Positions 37,126 to 45,067 of a stretch of DNA of 64,000 nucleotides are shown here, piece after piece (the first letter of the stretch is position 1; each line of letters starts with the position of its first letter). Position numbers and translations under genes: made by a program. Source of the stretch: Candidatus Nomurabacteria bacterium (GTDB taxonomy: Bacteria; Patescibacteriota; Minisyncoccia; Phycocordibacterales; UBA918). Below the pieces are notes generated by a model. It did no database searches. It was not told the DNA's origin and was given only the letters and a program-made list of their open reading frames with translations. The stretch is taken from assembly GCA_020632035.1 (NCBI GenBank), contig JACKGG010000004.1, positions 3,575 through 67,574 on the forward strand, given 5' to 3'.

Positions 37126-37824
37126 ATGAAAAAATACAAACACTTATTTTTTGATATGGATCAAACAGTTGCTCCAGCAAGACAGCCTATTTTGTCTGAA
37201 ATGTACGAACTGCTTGATTCACTTCCACACGATATCATTATTGTTTCTGGACAAGAGGTAGACAAAATACTGTGGCAAAGCAATAACCTGCCTGCCTACA
37301 CATTAGGTCAAAACGGAAATCACGCTAAAGATTTACAACGTGAAGAAATCTGGAATATTCCACTAGATGAAGCTCACCGTCAAGAAATACTTGCACACAT
37401 AGAAGCTATAACAAAAATTCTCGACCACGAATTAAATCATGATTGGAATCCAATAGAAGACAGGGGTGCGCAGATTACTTTTAGCCCTATCGGAAACACA
37501 GCCCCAGTTGAACACAAAAAATCATACGACCCCGACAGAAAAAAGCGCGAATTTCTAATGCAACAAGTTCCGTTCGAATCAAAGGAACTAGTGGTTAAAA
37601 TTGGTGGCTCTACCAGCCTAGACTATATTCATAAAGACAGACATAAAGGAACAAATGTACAAAAACTTATAGACCATATGGGATGGAACAAAGAAGAATG
37701 TATTTACTTTGGCGATGGACTTTACCCGGGAGGTAATGACGAAGCTGTAATCGGTGTTATCGAAACAGTACCGGTTGACGACCATAACGATACATACAAG
37801 AAGCTTCAAGAAATGCTTGGATAA
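37126..37824 (+). CDS. HAD-superfamily hydrolase, subfamily IIB-like (phosphomannomutase/sugar-phosphatase-like)
   Basis: Motif I FFDMDQTV (DxDxT). Motif III/IV KIGGSTSLD...YFGDGLYPGGNDEAV. 232 aa. Confidence 0.65.
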   Translation: MKKYKHLFFDMDQTVAPARQPILSEMYELLDSLPHDIIIVSGQEVDKILWQSNNLPAYTLGQNGNHAKDLQREEIWNIPLDEAHRQEILAHIEAITKILDHELNHDWNPIEDRGAQITFSPIGNTAPVEHKKSYDPDRKKREFLMQQVPFESKELVVKIGGSTSLDYIHKDRHKGTNVQKLIDHMGWNKEECIYFGDGLYPGGNDEAVIGVIETVPVDDHNDTYKKLQEMLG

Positions 37825-37839
37825 ATTAATCATCCAAAA

Positions 37840-37870
37840 CAAAAACAGCACTTAGTGCTGTTTTGTTTTA
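37840..37870. terminator. bidirectional intrinsic terminator (CAGCAC-TTAG-GTGCTG flanked by an A-run and TTTTGTTTT)
   Basis: Lies downstream of the HAD gene on the plus strand and downstream of tRNA-Ala(GGC) on the minus strand. Confidence 0.55.
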
Positions 37871-37873
37871 TAG

Positions 37874-37946
37874 TGGACTCTAGCGGACTTGAACCGCTCG
37901 CCTCTTCCATGCCATGGAAGCGCTCTACCGGATGAGCTAAGAGCCC
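37874..37946 (-). tRNA. tRNA-Ala (anticodon GGC), 73 nt, CCA not encoded
   Basis: The reverse complement folds into a cloverleaf. Acceptor stem GGGCTCT/AGAGTCC includes the G3:U70 AlaRS identity pair. D stem GCTC/GAGC. Anticodon stem CTTCC/GGAAG with loop ATGGCAT. T stem AGCGG/CCGCT with loop TTCAAGT. Discriminator A. Confidence 0.75.
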
Positions 37947-37967
37947 GGTGATCGAGATTTTAGCATA

Positions 37968-37998
37968 AAGAAAAACAGCGCGCATGTGCTGTTTTTCT
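37968..37998. terminator. A-run/hairpin/T-run element (CAGCGC-GCAT-GTGCTG) with the same flanks (aaaaac...ttttcttaatgtgg) as the terminator inside each 201-bp unit
   Basis: agaaaaacagcgcgcatgtgctgtttttcttaatgtgg immediately precedes (in plus coordinates) the first tRNA 3'-end copy. Confidence 0.45.
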
Positions 37999-38006
37999 TA
38001 ATGTGG

Positions 38007-38408
38007 TGGACTCGACAGGACTTGGTCACCTTCGTTAAGTACTTTATTCGCTAACGCTCAAAAGATACTAAACTACGCGACCCCGCCGTTCACATCGTCC
38101 TCACTTCGTTCCGGGCGATATGTTCACTCTTTTCAAGTCCTGACGAAAGCTAACGCTTTCTTCTCGTCCACACATAACAAAAACCGCTCACGCGGTTTTC
38201 TTATGTGTGGACTCGACAGGACTTGGTCACCTTCGTTAAGTACTTTATTCGCTAACGCTCAAAAGATACTAAACTACGCGACCCCGCCGTTCACATCGTC
38301 CTCACTTCGTTCCGGGCGATATGTTCACTCTTTTCAAGTCCTGACGAAAGCTAACGCTTTCTTCTCGTCCACACATAACAAAAACCGCTCACGCGGTTTT
38401 CTTATGTG
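38007..38408. repeat. two perfectly identical 201-bp tandem units, each carrying a copy of the tRNA-Ala(UGC) T-loop/3' end and an A-run/hairpin/T-run terminator (ACCGC-TCAC-GCGGT); followed by a degenerate third copy at 38409..38477
   Basis: Positions 38007-38207 and 38208-38408 read identically by eye. In minus-strand orientation each unit ends ...CAAGT-CCTGT-CGAGTCC-A followed by CCA (unit 1, 38004-38006) or CAC (unit 2). This is the exact complement of the 5' acceptor strand GGGCTCG of the truncated tRNA at 38478..38537. The third copy ends CCTGTCCA (a 7-nt deletion removes the acceptor strand). Confidence 0.85.
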
Positions 38409-38477
38409 GACAGGATTCACCTTCGTCAGTACCTTCGTTAAAGATACTTTTCAACTACGCGATCGCTAACGCCTTCA

Positions 38478-38537
38478 ACTTGAACCCGCTACCTCCTCAG
38501 TGCAAATGAGGCGCTCTACCAGATGAGCTACGAGCCC
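38478..38537 (-). tRNA. tRNA-Ala (anticodon UGC), nucleotides 1-60 only (5' acceptor strand through T-loop); the matching 3' segment is displaced into the tandem repeats, so this is a probable disrupted gene
   Basis: Reverse complement: GGGCTCG-TA-GCTC-ATCTGGTA-GAGC-G-CCTCA-TTTGCAC-TGAGG-AGGTA-GCGGG-TTCAAGT. After that the sequence diverges (TGAAGGCG...) instead of giving the 3' T-stem strand. Valid 3' partners (CCTGT-CGAGTCC-A, with two G:U pairs in the T stem and G3:U70) occur at 38008..38024 and 38209..38225. Confidence 0.55.
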
Positions 38538-38569
38538 AGAATAAATTCTTGTGGGCAATTTTAAACTTT

Positions 38570-38648
38570 CCACTTCTCATTTGTCATGTGCAAATGGTTC
38601 AATTGTCTCCGAGACAATCTTACCCCTATCAGATGAGCCACGAGCTAA
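38570..38648 (-). pseudogene. decayed tRNA-Ala-like remnant
   Basis: The reverse complement contains TAGCTCGTGGCTCATCTGATAGGGG (compare GGGCTCGTAGCTCATCTGGTAGAGC of the neighbouring tRNA) and CATTTGCAC (anticodon-loop sequence with TGC). These are interrupted by a perfect 8-bp hairpin ATTGTCTC-GGA-GACAAT, and there is no T arm. Confidence 0.3.
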
Positions 38649-38792
38649 ACCAGGAAAATTAAAATTTATTTTTATTTACTCCGAGTGTAGGGCTAGAAAG
38701 CTTTGCTTACGAGCCCTTTGTTTTTGACTTCTATTATGAAGTGCGGACATAATAATAGCCAAAGGCTTTAAAGTCAAGGTAATTTATAAGTT

Positions 38793-39755
38793 TTATACTG
38801 TTGCTGTTTCAACTAAGTGGCTAATCAAATCTGAGAAATTGATACCAACTGATGACGCTGCTTTAGGAAAGTTTGAATGTGGTGTAAGACCTGGTAAAGT
38901 ATTGATTTCAAGGAAATATACATCTCCATCTTTGACAATAAAATCACTTCTTGAGTACTGATCACAGCCTATTTCCTTGTGGACAGTCGCCGCCGCTTCT
39001 GACAGTAGGGCTTTTTCGTGATAAGAAAACCGGCCAGGGCATAGAAGCTTTGTTGTTCCGTTGTACTTATTTTCGTTTGAATAAAAGGTATCAGACCTAG
39101 GAGGGACGATTTCAATCACAGGTAGAGGGTACATTTCCATATTGCGGAAGTTATTTAAGATTCCTACAGTTGCTTCTTTTCCTCTTATGTACTCCTCAAC
39201 CATTACATGTTCATACATTTCTAGTAGCTCTGTTAAAGCAGTTTTTAAAGTTTCTTCAGTTGGTGTGTACCTAGCCCCGATTGATGAACCTCCAAGTATT
39301 GGTTTCACGAACAACTCACTTCCGACTTCAGAAAATATAAGTTTGATCTCTTCATCTAGAGTATCAATTTCTGCTCGACTGACTCTTCTATGTCGAGGCA
39401 TTTTTAAACCAATTGATCGTAAAGTTTGTTTAGTCAGTTCTTTATTAAAAGCGATCGCTGAGGGCATGGCTCGACTACCAGTAAATGGGACGTTTTTGCG
39501 CTGTAGGATACGTTGTACTTGCCCGTCTTCACCGTATGCGCCATGGAGAGCCAAGAAAACAACATCTGTGGTGTCTAATAGTGTTTCTGGATCCTTCACA
39601 AAGCCATCGTGTAGCCACTCTCCTTTACGGCTTACGACAATGTCTTTGGTTATATAATCAAGACCTCTCATGACCTCAAGAACAGCCTGTCCGGTACGCA
39701 TGGAGACATCGTATTCTTGGCTTGGGCCACCTCTAAGTACCGCTACTCTTTTCAT
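38793..39755 (-). CDS. ddl: D-alanine--D-alanine ligase
   Basis: N-terminus MKRVAVLRGGPSQEYDVSMRTGQAVLEV. ATP-grasp fold. 320 aa. Confidence 0.85.
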   Translation of the reverse strand: MKRVAVLRGGPSQEYDVSMRTGQAVLEVMRGLDYITKDIVVSRKGEWLHDGFVKDPETLLDTTDVVFLALHGAYGEDGQVQRILQRKNVPFTGSRAMPSAIAFNKELTKQTLRSIGLKMPRHRRVSRAEIDTLDEEIKLIFSEVGSELFVKPILGGSSIGARYTPTEETLKTALTELLEMYEHVMVEEYIRGKEATVGILNNFRNMEMYPLPVIEIVPPRSDTFYSNENKYNGTTKLLCPGRFSYHEKALLSEAAATVHKEIGCDQYSRSDFIVKDGDVYFLEINTLPGLTPHSNFPKAASSVGINFSDLISHLVETATV

Positions 39756-39770
39756 ATATAATCAAGTATA

Positions 39771-40673
39771 TCATTGTAGGGGTTCCTTTTTGTGGATAAC
39801 ATTTTGTCCATAAACTCCTTCAAGTAAATCTAAGTCTTTCTCGCTCGATATCAGGAGGTGGTTATTATACTCAACCATTTTAGTTAGCATGTCGTAAGCT
39901 TGGTCCTTACCAATTATCTGTGAGTGAAATGAGCGGAGAGCCTCAAAATCTTTTATGAAGCAATGACCACCAGCGCCCCTTTTGACTCCTTCTTTCTCTT
40001 TGGCATGTCCACTGTAGTGCAGCACTTCAGTATGACTTTTGCCTATTCTTTCGTCATTTATCATTGCGTCACGAATCAGTTCCCAGTCCGCTCCAGCAGT
40101 AGTGGCGATATCATGGAAAGCATTCATCATTAAGACTTTTGCATAAAGAAAGCAATTACCAAAATACTTTGTCATTTCAGCTTCTAGAGCTGGAACTATT
40201 ACTTGGTACTTGGCTTTGGGCAATATAGCCATTACTTGCTCTGCTCGAGTGTGATATTCATTTGAGCTTTCTGGAATACCAATTATGTTCCTGTCAGGAA
40301 ATGAAGCATCGTAAGCAGCACTTGCTTCACGCAAAAATTCTGGACTGTGCATTACGTATAACTTAGGAAACTGTTCTTGCAGTTGTTTGGTAACGCCAGG
40401 AAGGATGGTTGACTTAACTATTACAGTGGACCCATCTGCCACATTAGACAGAGCATTTTTAACTGGCTCGTAGCTAAAGCCCTTGGCAGTAGTTGGGGTC
40501 GGTACTGCGACAAAGACGATCTTGCAATCCTTTATCTTGTCTTTATTTTGTACATAGGGTTCTTCTAGTGAGTAACGCACTACTGAATAAGCTCTATTCT
40601 CAAAGTCATCAGCATAATGCTTACCGATCCAACCTTGTCCAATAAATCCAATTTTAATATTTTCTGTAATCAT
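39771..40673 (-). CDS. UDP-glucose/GDP-mannose dehydrogenase-family protein, short (C-terminal UDP-sugar-binding domain largely missing)
   Basis: N-terminal Rossmann motif KIGFIGQGWIGKHYADDF. Catalytic-cysteine block GAGGHCFIKD. Only 300 aa versus about 400-440 for typical family members. Confidence 0.65.
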   Translation of the reverse strand: MITENIKIGFIGQGWIGKHYADDFENRAYSVVRYSLEEPYVQNKDKIKDCKIVFVAVPTPTTAKGFSYEPVKNALSNVADGSTVIVKSTILPGVTKQLQEQFPKLYVMHSPEFLREASAAYDASFPDRNIIGIPESSNEYHTRAEQVMAILPKAKYQVIVPALEAEMTKYFGNCFLYAKVLMMNAFHDIATTAGADWELIRDAMINDERIGKSHTEVLHYSGHAKEKEGVKRGAGGHCFIKDFEALRSFHSQIIGKDQAYDMLTKMVEYNNHLLISSEKDLDLLEGVYGQNVIHKKEPLQ

Positions 40674-40705
40674 ATAGTCCTGTAACCCTTGTAATTGCTT
40701 GTAAG

Positions 40706-42010
40706 TTATGATTTTAACCTGCTGGATCGCTTTTGTCTGTGGTACAAAATTGCAAACCGGTGTGCTTCTGCGTTCGCTAGTAAAATTGAATTTTTATGTT
40801 CCTCAACCATTTTCTTTTGTCCTATAATTCTAATTGGCTTGTGCCTACTATTTTTTACAACACCAACTACCGGGATCACTAGTCCTTTAGATTTAAAAAC
40901 TCGTTCTACTACATTTTTCTGAGCAGTTGACCCGTCTACCGCAGTTAACTGCGGTAGAGGCCAGTCTTTGTGCTCCAATCGTCTAAGAATCACCTCTTTT
41001 AATGCTCCTGTGTCATTAGCTTTAGTTAAGCTGTTAATTTTGAACTTTCGATAATCTGATTTTAACGGCTCGCCACCCTCAACTACCGTCATAACTCCGA
41101 CCATATCGTCGCCCTGCAGGTGTGCAATATCGTAAGCTTCAATACGGATTCTTTTTTCATCACGATAAATTCTAGACTCATCCTTTATTAAGGCAACGTC
41201 CTGAATATGCTTCAAAGCAAATATTCTTTTCTTTAAAGAATTCGCTTCTTCAAATTTTTGATCTTTTGCTGATTTCAGCATCTCACGCTCAAGTTCTTTT
41301 ATAATCTCTTTTTTTCTTCCTTCAAAGAACAACCGTATGTGACGAATCGTTTTAGCGTACTCTTGCTTGGATTGTTTATTTGGGTACAGTCCAATTTGTC
41401 GGTTAAAATCAATCTTACCCTTTGCTAGTTTGCTTCTTTCTTTTCCAAGAACAGTACTTGTATCATAAAACTGAAAAATTCGTCTGACAATTTTGAGTGC
41501 CTCTTTAAATAGCATTCCGTTTGGAAAGGGTCCAAATTCATATTTTATTTCGTCTTTAGTGAATTGTTCAGTAAGATCTTTCCCTCGGACAACCAAAACA
41601 CGAGGAAAGTCTTCATTTGTAATTACAAGATGATTGTAACTTTTATCATCCTTACTGCGTGTATTGTAAAAAGGTTTATGAGTTCGAATAAGATTCGTCT
41701 CTAATATTAGCGCCTCTAGTACGCTGTCTGTCTCTGTAAACTCTACGGACACAGCTTCTTTAACCATTTTCTCTATTAACAATGAGCGCTTATCGACTAA
41801 ATCTTCTGTGAAATAGCTTCTCACCCTGTTTTTTAGTGAGGTCGCTTTGCCAATATAAAGGATTTTTTTTCGTGAACCCAAAAAGAAATACACCCCGGGA
41901 CTATTAGGTAATTTAGTATTTTTGAGGTCTATTTGCTTCATGTATTTAACTTTAATGGCAAATGTGTGGATATGCAACAAAACTAAATTTACAATAAGTG
42001 CTATCATCAA
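40706..42010 (-). CDS. uvrC: excinuclease ABC subunit C, short form (GIY-YIG plus RNase-H-like endonuclease domains; C-terminal (HhH)2 domain absent); likely start at internal MKQIDLKN (about 41941)
   Basis: GIY-YIG block PGVYFFLGSRKKILYIGKATSLKNRVRSYF. The downstream RIEAYDIAHLQGDDMVGVMTVVEGGEPLKSDYRKFKI matches the UvrC 3'-incision domain. 411-434 aa versus about 600. Confidence 0.75.
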   Translation of the reverse strand: MMIALIVNLVLLHIHTFAIKVKYMKQIDLKNTKLPNSPGVYFFLGSRKKILYIGKATSLKNRVRSYFTEDLVDKRSLLIEKMVKEAVSVEFTETDSVLEALILETNLIRTHKPFYNTRSKDDKSYNHLVITNEDFPRVLVVRGKDLTEQFTKDEIKYEFGPFPNGMLFKEALKIVRRIFQFYDTSTVLGKERSKLAKGKIDFNRQIGLYPNKQSKQEYAKTIRHIRLFFEGRKKEIIKELEREMLKSAKDQKFEEANSLKKRIFALKHIQDVALIKDESRIYRDEKRIRIEAYDIAHLQGDDMVGVMTVVEGGEPLKSDYRKFKINSLTKANDTGALKEVILRRLEHKDWPLPQLTAVDGSTAQKNVVERVFKSKGLVIPVVGVVKNSRHKPIRIIGQKKMVEEHKNSILLANAEAHRFAILYHRQKRSSRLKS

Positions 42011-42071
42011 TTTTTAGGAGGTCTAACAATTAGACTACTGTACATTAAAACTTTTTGGGGAGGGCTGTAAA

Positions 42072-42401
42072 TTGAAAGCTAAAAAGAAATCTGTTAAAAG
42101 AGCTGATCCGGAATATCGAGAGTTACAAAGGTATCTCTTAAGACTTTACCGAAAATCACCCGATTTGTACCACGCAAATCAGCAAAATTTCAGTAAGGGC
42201 CCTTGGGGCCATTTGTTTCAAAAGTTTTGCGAGAAAACAGTAAACTCAACGAAATCCGTGGAGTACATTGTTCCGGAGCTGAATAATAAGCAATGGGACG
42301 AACTACTGTTTAAACAAGGAGCTTTTGAAGCAAACAGGCGCGTCTGCAAAATCATAAAACGCTTCCCAAATATTCTTGCCCGTAAGGCGGCGGCTGCGTA
42401 G
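42072..42401 (+). CDS. small basic hypothetical protein
   Basis: 109 aa. Lys/Arg-rich N-terminus. Sits between the convergently oriented uvrC and uvrA genes. Confidence 0.35.
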   Translation: MKAKKKSVKRADPEYRELQRYLLRLYRKSPDLYHANQQNFSKGPWGHLFQKFCEKTVNSTKSVEYIVPELNNKQWDELLFKQGAFEANRRVCKIIKRFPNILARKAAAA

Positions 42402-42421
42402 CAGCCGTTTTACTTTTCGCT

Positions 42422-45067
42422 TTACAGCATCTTTTTCAAATACTGACCGGTGTAAGACTTTGGATTGTCAGCTACTTGTTCTGGTGTGCCTTTAGCGACT
42501 ATCTGACCACCTTTTGCTCCGCCTTCTGGGCCAATATCAATAATATAATCCGCACTTTTAACTAAATCTAGATTATGTTCAATCACCATAACAGTGTTGC
42601 CTTTGTCGACAAGTCTTTGCAAAATTTCAATTAGTTTTTTAACGTCTTCGTAGTGCAATCCTATAGTTGGCTCGTCTAAGAGATAGATAGTTTTTTGGGT
42701 ATGCTGTCTATATAACTCGGATGCTATTTTTACTCTTTGCGCTTCTCCCCCAGACAAAGTAGTAGCACTTTGTCCAAGTTCCAAATAACCTAAACCAACC
42801 TCAACTAATGAATTTAAGCGCTCTTCTATAGCTGGAATATCTTTAAAAAACGTTAAAGCATCTTCCACTGTCATATGTAGGACTTCGTAGATATTTTTCT
42901 TTCTGAAATAGATTTCAAGTGTTTCCTTGGTAAACCTAGTTCCGTCACAGACATCACAAGTAACATACACAGTTGGGAGAAAGTGCATTTCTACGGCAAT
43001 TACTCCATTACCCTGACACGCTTCACAACGCCCACCTTTAACATTAAAGCTAAACCTGCCAGCTTTCCAACCTCTCGCCCGGGCTTCACTTGTAGCAGCG
43101 AACAGATCGCGTATATGAGTAAAGGCGCCAGTGTAAGTGGCTGGGTTACTTCTTGGAGTTCTACCAATTGGTGACTGGTCGATCAATACTGAGCGCCCCA
43201 GGTACTCAGTACCAGTAAAACTAGCACAATTGTGAGTCTTAGCGCTACGAAAACGCTTTTCTAATCTAGCTTTGAGGTTTCTGTCCACAATCTCGTACAT
43301 AAAGGTAGACTTACCAGAACCTGAGACGCCAGTTACACAAACTAGTCGACCAAGCGGTATGTCTACATTCATATTTTTAATATTAAAGGCTTGTCCTCCT
43401 TTGATTTGAATTTTGCCCTTTTCTGAACTTCTTCTTTTTGGAACAGCTATCACTTTGTCACCTCTTAGGTAGTCCAGTGTTACGGAACCAGAAGCATTCT
43501 TTTTGTCTGCCATTAGCTTCTCTAAGTAGTCCGCTACAATCACCTCTCCACCGTGCACACCGGCTCCAGGTCCAATGTCTACTAGGTAGTCAGAAGCGCG
43601 AATAGTGTCTTCGTCGTGCTCTACCACAATGATAGTATTGCCCAGATCTCGTAGCTCTTTTAAAGTTTTTATCAATTTATCGTTGTCTCTTTGGTGCAAG
43701 CCTATGGTTGGCTCGTCTAGCACGTAAAGAGCCCCTACTAACCCGGAACCAAGTTGAGAAGCTAGTCTAATTCGCTGAGCTTCTCCACCTGACAAAGTAT
43801 TAGCACGTCTGTTTAGGGTTAAGTATTCAATACCGACGTCCATCATAAAATCTAATCTCTCAATAACTTCACGCAAGGCCGGCCAAGCAATTTCTTCATC
43901 TTTCTTGTTTAGCTTTAGGTTATTTATAAAGTCTACGGCTTCTTTGACAGTTTGGTTAGTAAAGTCAACGATGTTCATGCCGAGTGACTTTTTACCATCT
44001 CCACCAAGAAATACCCGCAGCGCTTCTGGCCTTAAACGAGCCCCTTTACAGGCTGGACATTCGTCCGATTGGAAAATGCCAATTACTCCTAGCCCGTTAC
44101 ACTCTGGGCAAGCGCCATATGGTGAGTTGAAAGAAAAAAGTCTTGGTTCTACCTCAGGGAAAGAGGATCCATCGACTGGGCAAATGAATTTAGCCGACAT
44201 TGTCCTTTCAGTTCCGTCTGGGCTTTCTATTTTAACTAAACCATTGGCCGTAGTTAAGGCCAGTTCTACCGCCTCGGAAAGACGTTCCCTTGAACTTTTA
44301 GGGTCGTCAGTAAACTCACTCACATATATTTCATCAACCAATACATCTATGTCGTGTCGTTTAGTCTTGCTCAGCACTATCTTGTCTCTCAGTTGCTTTA
44401 TTTCTCCATCTATCTTGACTGTCTCATACCCCTTACTGAGCAAATCATATAACATTTGGTAATATTCCCCCTTTCTACCTACTACTACTGGAGCAAAGAT
44501 TGCCACTCTACCCTTAGTAACTTCTATACCCATTACTTTTTGAGACTGGTTTTTAGTAGCTGTTCTTACTTCTCTGTCTTCTATCGACTTAAGTACTATT
44601 CTGAGAATTTCATCTTGAGAAAGCTTTTGGATTGGCACGTCTGTGTCAATACAGTACGGTTGGCCTACGCGTGCATAGACAATACGCAAGTAATCGTAGA
44701 TTTCCGTAATAGTAGCAACAGTAGATCGTGGATTACGAGAGGCAGATTTCTGGTCAATTGAAATGGCTGGAGAGAGTCCAGAGATTTCATCAACGTCGGG
44801 CTTCTGCATTTTGTTTAAAAATTGTCTTGCATAAGGTGAAAGAGACTCGACATAACGTCTTTGACCTTCTGCAAAAATGGTATCAAATGCCAGAGAAGAT
44901 TTACCTGATCCAGATGGACCAGTAATAGCAATCATACTGCCTCGTGGCATCTCGACATTAATATTCTTTAAATTATGAGTACGTGCTCCGCGAACAACAA
45001 TCTTACTAGATTCTGATTTAGCAGGCTCTTCCCACTTCGTCCGTGTTTTCTTTTTTGGTGTTGCCAT
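42422..45067 (-). CDS. uvrA: excinuclease ABC subunit A
   Basis: Two ABC ATPase modules. N-terminal Walker A ITGPSGSGKSSLAFDTIFAEGQRRYVESLS. Zinc-finger Cys clusters. LSGGE signatures. 881 aa. Confidence 0.95.
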   Translation of the reverse strand: MATPKKKTRTKWEEPAKSESSKIVVRGARTHNLKNINVEMPRGSMIAITGPSGSGKSSLAFDTIFAEGQRRYVESLSPYARQFLNKMQKPDVDEISGLSPAISIDQKSASRNPRSTVATITEIYDYLRIVYARVGQPYCIDTDVPIQKLSQDEILRIVLKSIEDREVRTATKNQSQKVMGIEVTKGRVAIFAPVVVGRKGEYYQMLYDLLSKGYETVKIDGEIKQLRDKIVLSKTKRHDIDVLVDEIYVSEFTDDPKSSRERLSEAVELALTTANGLVKIESPDGTERTMSAKFICPVDGSSFPEVEPRLFSFNSPYGACPECNGLGVIGIFQSDECPACKGARLRPEALRVFLGGDGKKSLGMNIVDFTNQTVKEAVDFINNLKLNKKDEEIAWPALREVIERLDFMMDVGIEYLTLNRRANTLSGGEAQRIRLASQLGSGLVGALYVLDEPTIGLHQRDNDKLIKTLKELRDLGNTIIVVEHDEDTIRASDYLVDIGPGAGVHGGEVIVADYLEKLMADKKNASGSVTLDYLRGDKVIAVPKRRSSEKGKIQIKGGQAFNIKNMNVDIPLGRLVCVTGVSGSGKSTFMYEIVDRNLKARLEKRFRSAKTHNCASFTGTEYLGRSVLIDQSPIGRTPRSNPATYTGAFTHIRDLFAATSEARARGWKAGRFSFNVKGGRCEACQGNGVIAVEMHFLPTVYVTCDVCDGTRFTKETLEIYFRKKNIYEVLHMTVEDALTFFKDIPAIEERLNSLVEVGLGYLELGQSATTLSGGEAQRVKIASELYRQHTQKTIYLLDEPTIGLHYEDVKKLIEILQRLVDKGNTVMVIEHNLDLVKSADYIIDIGPEGGAKGGQIVAKGTPEQVADNPKSYTGQYLKKML

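Follow-up and report, generated by a model that had tools for sequence, protein, structure and literature searches.

The question raised by a stretch of Candidatus Nomurabacteria DNA (64,000 nt of contig JACKGG010000004.1, analysed as a whole and hereafter called the window) is what became of an alanine tRNA gene, tRNA-Ala(UGC), that stops after its T loop and whose missing 3′ end is written out again further downstream. A first-pass annotation, made from the sequence alone, had read this arrangement as a serial duplication of the tRNA 3′ end, and had weighed integration scars and a split or intron-containing tRNA as its origin. Comparison with related loci (L001–L054) points to another explanation, to which we assign a probability of roughly 0.6: the gene was truncated by a deletion, and the downstream copies are parts of mobile, structured units. 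The window derives from a Paceibacteria-type genome of the Candidate Phyla Radiation (CPR, Patescibacteria). The reduced genomes of CPR bacteria are thought to be poor in mobile elements; a conserved, horizontally exchanged repeat family together with integrase-less cassettes at a single tRNA gene would provide these organisms with a concrete route of gene flow. The units also add a new, well-supported structured motif, the ends of which copy and complement a tRNA 3′ end. Finally, 36% of the organism's alanine codons depend on tRNA-Ala(UGC), yet its orthologous and apparently only gene for this tRNA is broken. All coordinates given below are positions in the window, and the features of the locus lie on its minus strand unless stated otherwise.

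The cut tRNA gene and its cognate 3′ ends

The 5′ part of the gene is located at 38478..38537 and comprises nt 1–60, i.e., the 5′ strand of the acceptor stem, the D arm, the anticodon arm with TGC, the 5′ strand of the T stem, and the T loop TTCAAGT; the 3′-terminal 13 nt are absent. The Rfam tRNA model recognizes 38481–38537 with 35.2 bits (gathering score 29), treating the T arm as deleted, and the stretch 38537–38478 is 100% identical to nt 1–60 of the intact tRNA-Ala(UGC) in 14 related genomes. On this point the first-pass annotation, according to which nt 1–60 are present and the remainder is gone, was accurate. It had also located the cognate 3′ end correctly. The corresponding 18-mer, CAAGTCCTGTCGAGTCCA, is found as an exact match at 38225–38208 and at 38024–38007 (chance expectation, 0.03 matches), and it is followed by CAC at the former site and by CCA (38006–38004) at the latter, just as had been noted. 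Intact relatives show CCTGT to be the native sequence of the T-stem 3′ strand, where it forms two G-U pairs. The downstream copies in the window therefore represent the genuine 3′ end of tRNA-Ala(UGC).

The relatives were collected by an exact search with the first 46 nt of the tRNA, taking one genome per species, which yielded 14 loci. All of them reside in metagenome-assembled genomes (MAGs) of CPR bacteria labelled Kaiserbacteria, Nomurabacteria, Paceibacteria, or Saccharibacteria. The tRNA is contiguous in 14 of 14, ending GGGTTCAAGTCCTGTCGAGTCCA and reading ...GCGGGTTCAAGTCCTGTCGAGTCCA, and the same is true for those metagenome loci in which the tRNA is visible, most of the 25 examined. 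A scan of 241 million metagenome records for this tRNA with a non-C base after the T loop returned 0 matches, on the basis of which a recurrent split gene was rejected. The window is the sole case found in which the tRNA itself is cut. The complete 73-nt tRNA is 100% identical across the L008–L046 loci, whose regions around ddl (the upstream D-Ala-D-Ala ligase gene) share only 58–72% identity, the search having demanded identity in the first 46 nt only; this could reflect extreme constraint or, alternatively, a tRNA travelling with the exchanged downstream DNA. A leader motif, GGAG(C)TGAGTATTNCACTCAAC...TCTCC, is conserved about 20–60 nt before G1 in L016, L018, L021, L026, L028, and L034, and the loop of the stem-loop within it, TATTGCA, resembles the alanine anticodon loop.

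Could the two parts nevertheless be a working gene? A functional split tRNA, formed by pairing of the 60-nt 5′ piece with a 3′ end carried by a unit or by removal of a long intervening sequence from the T loop, would be in keeping with the perfect conservation of the 5′ 60 nt behind their own promoter-like site, with downstream copies that are exactly cognate, U70 included, and with the fact that tRNA-Ala(UGC) is essential while no other copy is visible. Patescibacteria are, moreover, known to tolerate interrupted tRNA genes (10.1101/2025.07.03.662931). However, the interrupted form is not conserved in relatives: all 14 genome loci are contiguous, the metagenome scan disclosed no severed form, and the units follow an intact tRNA there and thus have not evolved as 3′ halves. 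Known bacterial tRNA introns are all situated in the anticodon loop (10.1101/2025.07.03.662931), whereas the break considered here occurs after T-loop position 60, outside anticodon loop positions 32–38. A group I signature, i.e., an Intron_gpI core, is lacking; cmscan at E ≤ 10 across 37400–39200 reported only tRNA and chance-level matches. A group I or other intron was rejected because no Rfam match exists and because the "intervening" DNA also occurs after intact tRNAs.

The sequence that is actually attached to the 5′ part offers a simpler account. The junction (38478/38477) reads TTCAAGT|TGAAGG, and the 72 nt fused to nt 60 (38406..38477, termed U0) constitute a degenerate half-unit ending in a crippled 3′ copy, AATCCTGTCCAC (38417–38406). 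This proximal copy had been described as having lost CGAGTCC; a loss is indeed observed, but it amounts to five nucleotides (CGAGT) rather than seven, and CAAGT is altered as well. U0 aligns, with internal deletions, to the 3′ half of the window's own 168-nt unit, reaching a score of 65 as compared to 36.4 ± 5.4 for shuffled sequences, and this alignment argues for truncation by deletion. With moderate confidence, this UGC gene can be regarded as a dead gene produced by deletion, truncated and without function. The earlier statement that the UGC isoacceptor has no contiguous template at the locus holds, and a working tRNA-Ala(UGC) would have to come from elsewhere in the genome. At the read level, an intact junction would be recognized by TTCAAGTCCTGTCGAGTCCA; the string for a genome search for tRNA-Ala(UGC) is GGGCTCGTAGCTCATCTGGTAGAGCGCCTCATTTGCAC.

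A structured unit family behind tRNA-Ala(UGC)

The repeated 3′ ends are not private to the window, and a duplication confined to this genome is not supported. One or two additional direct copies of the 18-mer occur 130–400 nt downstream of the intact tRNA in 10 of the 14 genomes, and a metagenome scan for the unit-specific junction GACCAAGTCCTGTCGAGTCCA added 25 loci of the same architecture. The copies belong to a conserved, previously undescribed family of structured units that follows intact tRNA-Ala(UGC) in more than 30 related loci. Units measure 135–178 nt. Right after a terminator, each starts with GTGGACTCG-AAG, a hairpin, and CGNCAGGACTTGAA, which together form the hairpin-interrupted reverse complement of the last about 19 nt of the tRNA. 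The middle of the unit is occupied by a variable hairpin and, next to it, a longer hairpin with a conserved purine-rich (GA) internal loop, giving two or three covarying hairpins. The unit ends with a direct copy of the last 18–19 nt of the tRNA, after which the next terminator follows.

Analysis of 16 distinct units by RNAalifold gave 47 pairs, 17 of them with compensatory changes; an 18-bp helix between its two ends closes the unit. R1, the covariance model derived from this alignment, detects more than 50 units in 39 loci, organized in tandem arrays of 1–5. Strong R1 matches (36–189 bits) are all located on the tRNA strand, the top reverse-strand score at a strong unit being 10.5 bits; two short weak units (L022, L046), the only such cases, score about 12 bits on either strand. 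In a set of 33 distinct units, 94.7% of the cells are paired and 26 of 47 pairs are changed on both sides. The covariation score, obtained with an alignment that was fitted to the model, is 0.238 versus 0.097 for column shuffles (reached in 0 of 500) and 0.016–0.054 for slid controls. Many pairs switch between G-U and G-C, which fits a structure formed by the single-stranded sense strand. As expected for integron-like repeat elements, a strand-specific secondary structure thus outlasts sequence change. Apart from tRNA, no Rfam family (Rfam 15) reaches threshold in the window or in five related loci, and sub-threshold matches are at chance level. Protein-coding units were rejected, given that the open frame varies by unit type, hairpin lengths differ by non-multiples of three, and the compensatory changes are non-conservative in protein. 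As far as can be judged from the sequence, the units probably encode a small structured RNA.

Two complete units are present in the window. Unit 2 (38205..38372; R1, 162.8 bits, E = 1e-47) carries the inverted tRNA 3′ end, GTGGAC..CAGGACTTG, at its 5′ end and the direct copy at 38225–38208 at its 3′ end. Unit 1 (38004..38171; R1, 164.3 bits) is identical to unit 2 and ends with the direct copy at 38024–38007. A terminator had been annotated after each copy, and this was confirmed. An intrinsic-terminator-like hairpin follows U0 (38380..38401), lying downstream of the tRNA 5′ part but ahead of the first complete 3′ copy; a second one (38179..38200), which is bidirectional and called on the plus strand too, follows unit 2. 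Behind unit 1, a terminator-like inverted repeat (I3, 37964..38003; 16-nt arms, 94% complementary) has a sequence of its own, unlike that of the other two hairpins, and is not followed by an inverted copy of the tRNA end. Two 201-nt tandem repeats, 38006–38206 and 38207–38407, each consisting of a terminator and a unit, are 100% identical (period 201, 99% matches, score 814); this exact duplication is very recent.

The same elements bear on the idea of a gene in pieces. The minimum-free-energy fold of 38545–38195 does pair the 5′ acceptor strand with the 3′ copy of unit 2. However, the terminator at 38401–38380 separates the parts, and no promoter-like site is found in 38400–38004, which leaves the 3′ half without a promoter of its own. 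The 3′ copy is sequestered within the 18-bp helix of its own unit; according to the predicted fold, freeing it costs +19.6 kcal/mol whereas pairing with the 5′ piece gains −8.4 kcal/mol, and co-folding of the 5′ piece with the unit brings no net gain (−78.0 vs −78.8 kcal/mol). The nearest 3′ copy is devoid of CGAGT, making an acceptor stem impossible.

When terminal and internal copies of the arrays were compared at the CCA-bearing end, where serial integration predicts a native last copy, no clear difference was seen. L024 and L043 harbor near-identical units (U14 and U32) in which the first hairpin has been swapped wholesale, and terminators of different types occur in free combination with the unit types, which makes the family a mosaic built from exchangeable modules.

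Cassette insertion at the tRNA 3′ end

In relatives, the tRNA 3′ end and its unit-borne copies serve as a site for insertion. L047/L048/L053, L022, L024, and L043 carry cassettes (669, 783, and 541 nt) directly after ...CGAGTCCA(CC), bounded by ..CGAGTCCA|CC.. at their left and by ..|GTCCACCAAATACAC at their right margin. The tRNA's own end is targeted in L047 and L022, and a unit's copy of this end in L024 and L043. In L039, L026, L032, and L008, the right junction GTCCACCAAATACAC is the continuation of an uninterrupted tRNA 3′ end and terminator, from which it follows that 6–9 nt, GTCCAC(C)(AA), are duplicated upon insertion. As in tRNA-targeting elements, DNA is thus flanked by direct repeats of a tRNA 3′ segment, and both filled and empty sites exist. 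The first-pass annotation had placed the integration point in the T loop, but the insertions documented here show crossover at the acceptor end (GTCCACC) instead. A circular cassette would be betrayed by the junction string ...GATGCCAGTC..GCAAA-GTCCACC-AATTTATAT.... The window itself contains units only and no cargo cassette.

The cassettes have in common a conserved right end, which overlaps the start of a small open reading frame (ORF) on the reverse strand. This ORF family (VDFASIDWHQVSAEYLEFSA...HYPL...) starts exactly at the junction GTGGAC and is seen at the right cassette ends in L022, L024, L030, L041, and L043–L054. The encoded peptide (VDFASIDWH...) has no Pfam or PHROG match and only 11 clusters of hypothetical homologues of 56–87 aa, on which account an SSV-like split integrase was rejected; the ORF may specify a real micro-protein or may be a recombination arm of the cassettes.

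Exchange at the site is also apparent from locus comparisons. L012 is about 1 kb longer than L014 at the cassette point, and the DNA after the last copy differs between close relatives. L026 and L032 share 72% identity in the upstream gene versus 99% over the terminator and units. Between the window and the syntenic, Nomurabacteria-labelled L014, identity is 70–76% on the uvrA–ddl side (38739–45067) and 94% on the tRNA-Ala(GGC)–HAD side (37649–37967); the switch inside the tRNA/unit region suggests a recent recombination tract ending there. Downstream of the units in L028, L030, and L044, a Fic-domain-like protein (motif, by eye) and a type I restriction-modification system resembling HsdM/S/R (ORF size and sequence) were noted. 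Such putative defence genes behind a unit array fit a role of the site as a landing place. In one lineage, a 279–292-aa protein without a Pfam domain is always the next gene after the tRNA/cassette region (L024 6689–7564, L047 1101–1940, and seven further loci).

An enzyme that could carry out these insertions was not found in or next to the elements, either by a Pfam scan of 19 window ORFs or by inspection of related loci. The scan covered 19 of the ORFs of at least 150 aa at about 20–55 kb of the window and revealed no integrase-like domain (two ORFs have no family; shorter ORFs were not scanned), in line with the earlier remark that no integrase is nearby. The 18-mer is absent from 2.9 million viral contigs, and a phage attP origin was rejected on these grounds.

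Among known systems, the locus is closest in behaviour to tycheposon-type islands and closest in architecture to integron attC arrays, and it fails defining features of both. The tycheposon islands of Prochlorococcus are tRNA-anchored integration hot spots with arrays of partial tRNA repeats (10.1101/2020.12.28.424599). Shared features comprise insertion at a specific tRNA 3′ end, a flanking duplicated tRNA 3′ segment, stacked insertions, cargo that varies among close relatives, and extra partial tRNA copies. In contrast to these islands, the loci examined here revealed no tyrosine recombinase or integrase fragment, the cassettes extend over only 0.5–0.8 kb, the tRNA ends are embedded in a conserved, covarying fold of about 170 nt with an inverted copy of the site, and the duplicated cassette core is only GTCCAC(C). 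With integrons, the locus shares arrays of small recombinase-less cassettes at one defined site, a one-strand structure conserved beyond sequence, variable terminal hairpins, and horizontal exchange of array members. Unlike integrons, it has no intI/attI beside the array (uvrA, uvrC, ugd, and ddl lie upstream), its core is GTCCACC instead of GTTRRRY, cargo cassettes do not each carry a unit, a tRNA gene serves as the anchor, and the units are larger (135–178 nt) and equipped with terminators, and are at most putative single-stranded DNA sites. Interrupted tRNAs form a third point of reference. Group I introns in Patescibacteria tRNAs are self-splicing, reside in the anticodon loop, and are conserved among relatives (10.1101/2025.07.03.662931). 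Like archaeal split or intron-containing tRNAs and the group I cases, the present gene has non-contiguous 5′ and 3′ parts, and tRNA introns of the host phylum likewise hide genes from annotation tools; it differs in the site of the break (after T-loop position 60), in the intervening DNA, which lacks an intron signature and includes a terminator, and in the uninterrupted gene of the relatives.

The truncated gene may have arisen in four steps. First, an older copy of the tRNA would have decayed, leaving the 5′ remnant AGCTCGTGGCTCATCTGATAGGGG at 38623..38646 (repeat family D4, 90% to 38516–38535). This remnant occupies the exact place of nt 1–22 of the intact tRNA in L011; behind the same leader, 38716–38626 aligns to L011 433–341 and runs into the L011 tRNA, which argues for an earlier round of replacement at the locus. 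In a second step, another tRNA copy with its own promoter would have taken over; a promoter-like site, ATGACA-18-TAAAAT (38558..38587), ends 20 nt upstream of the truncated copy. Next, a deletion starting at tRNA position 61 and reaching into the first unit downstream would have fused nt 60 to the half-unit, removing the tRNA 3′ end, its terminator, and the inverted copy (the 5′ half of the unit); in relatives this region forms a long palindrome. Lastly, the next unit would have been doubled by the very recent tandem duplication of 201 nt. The units themselves would be portable copies of a landing site that spread between lineages by recombination at tRNA-Ala(UGC), the recombinase being supplied in trans; confidence in this mechanism of unit and cassette mobility is low. 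Taken one step further, units and cassettes might make up an undescribed, integron-comparable cassette platform at the tRNA-Ala(UGC) 3′ end of Paceibacteria-type CPR bacteria, in which the recombinase is encoded elsewhere, cassettes are inserted at GTCCACC, self-pairing, folded RNA or single-stranded DNA units of about 170 nt multiply the site and carry it between lineages, and the truncated tRNA is collateral damage. This larger proposal is tentative and somewhat more doubtful than probable.

Rival readings and the surrounding locus

Several observations weigh against truncation by deletion combined with mobile units. The first set concerns the tRNA. tRNA-Ala(UGC) is essential, and GCA and GCG account for 98 of 276 alanine codons (36%) in eight window genes. 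The truncated copy occupies the orthologous locus, and most relatives have a single match to the tRNA sequence. Within the 64-kb window no intact tRNA-Ala(UGC) exists; an ARAGORN run recovered tRNA-Ala(GGC) and made no tRNA-Ala(UGC) call, including at 38537–38478. The retained 60 nt are undecayed although the half-unit fused to them is heavily decayed, implying that the deletion is very recent or that the 5′ part is still under selection or gene-converted. The junction 38478/38477 is backed only by the present assembly, and three short-read assemblies of the same species (L001–L003) break inside the tRNA at nt 21–30 (window 38517/38508). This leaves three possibilities: a further copy beyond the window, a deletion that is very young or present as a minority variant, or an assembly error at this point. 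The second set concerns mobility. No recombinase was found by the window ORF scan and a by-eye check, without formal domain search, of 48 ORFs downstream of arrays in 18 related loci. The units have no promoter of their own and may act as RNA, as a folded single-stranded DNA site, or as both.

The last point leads to the rival that survives best, although it too is unlikely. According to it, the units are purely non-coding RNA genes co-transcribed with tRNA-Ala(UGC), acting, for example, as a decoy or as a trailer RNA whose mimicry of, or pairing with, the tRNA 3′ end serves processing; they would not be mobile, their copy number would change by ordinary tandem duplication and loss, and the cassettes would represent unrelated use of a hot spot. 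This assumption is supported by the strong strand-specific covariation with G-U pairs and the conserved GA internal loops, which are typical of RNA motifs, by the invariable location of units directly downstream of the tRNA and in its orientation, by the terminator at the end of each unit, and by the lack of an integrase nearby (in the scanned window ORFs and, by inspection, in related loci). However, no unit is preceded by a promoter and each is preceded by a terminator. Moreover, cassettes insert at the units' own 3′ copies as well (L024, L043), hosts with 72% identity in the neighbouring gene have arrays that match at 99%, and hairpin and terminator modules are shuffled among otherwise identical units. 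Last, the closing helix (helix 3) never drifts from the tRNA sequence although covariation would permit this.

An assembly or consensus artefact is improbable. In this case, the real genome would contain an intact tRNA-Ala(UGC) and a unit array like those of its relatives, the assembler having either collapsed or wrongly joined the repeats or captured a minority deletion variant. The locus is indeed rich in repeats, among them the 201-nt tandem repeat with its 100% identical copies; the essential tRNA appears to be single-copy in relatives; 241 million metagenome records yielded no second severed example; and contigs from three independent short-read assemblies of the same species end within the tRNA, at nt 21–30. 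Against this stands the fused 72-nt segment (38477–38406), which is unique and diverged and has no copy elsewhere in the window; a sequence of this kind is not something that an assembler makes up. Had a simple repeat collapsed, the joined sequences would be identical, whereas the parts joined here share 1–2 nt only. The contig breaks in L001–L003 are uninformative because the tRNA is 100% identical in co-occurring CPR species and breaks assembly graphs anyway; their interpretation as the sign of a second tRNA copy was rejected for the same reason. L004–L006 end at about 37180–37200, so that same-species short-read assemblies break on both sides of the locus, and the region between these breaks is probably missing or fragmented in most public MAGs of the group. 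Exact-protein look-ups of the HAD hydrolase and of an 88-aa ORF, made for independent contigs across the junction, gave no match.

Slightly less probable still is the scar model favoured by the first-pass annotation, in which the 3′ copies are inert attL/attR leftovers of successive phage or island integrations whose bodies have been deleted. Serial integration classically leaves direct repeats of a tRNA 3′ end beside the tRNA, tycheposon islands are described as containing arrays of partial tRNAs (10.1101/2020.12.28.424599), and cassettes do insert at the site in relatives. The link to site-specific insertion at the tRNA 3′ end consequently stands (cassettes at GTCCAC(C), 6–9-nt duplication), but the notion of decaying scars does not: inert scars decay, yet the units preserve a common fold (26 of 47 pairs compensatory) and exceed neighbouring genes in conservation. 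Furthermore, no viral contig contains the 18-mer, neither an integrase nor a fragment of one was seen, and an inverted copy at the 5′ end of the unit is unexpected for a scar. A split or intron-containing functional tRNA, finally, is very improbable in view of the contiguous gene in relatives, the missing group I match, the terminator between the parts, the units' lack of a promoter, and the 3′ copy locked in its helix.

The gene order around the locus is uvrA-uvrC-ugd-ddl-tRNA-Ala(UGC)-[units]-tRNA-Ala(GGC)-HAD, and ddl (38793–39755) lies upstream of all minus-strand features of the locus. After ddl, a promoter-like site, TTGACT-17-TATTAT (38749..38777), precedes the leader. The TTGACT..TATTAT context is also present upstream of the tRNA in L011, L022, L024, and L042 and marks a conserved position of the tRNA-Ala(UGC) promoter. 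Within 38558–38646, the decayed first tRNA copy is followed by a hairpin, CATTTG-CACATGA-CAAATG, which is unlike the others. On the other side, an intact tRNA-Ala(GGC) (37873..37946) has its own terminator at 37864–37842, so that the earlier description of a locus flanked by this gene and by the decayed remnant (38646–38623) was correct; in L010 and L014, tRNA-Ala(GGC) is located directly, or one unit, downstream of tRNA-Ala(UGC). The locus also has consequences for annotation, since tRNA finders miss the truncated gene and spurious proteins are called across units. Reverse-strand frames are open across whole units and terminators, as exemplified by the 88-aa ORF at 38203–38469 on the plus strand and by L047 2270–2635 and L043 66–419, and public gene calls of 88–155 aa across units (e.g., 121-aa ORFs in relatives) are probably spurious proteins arising from the repeat family.

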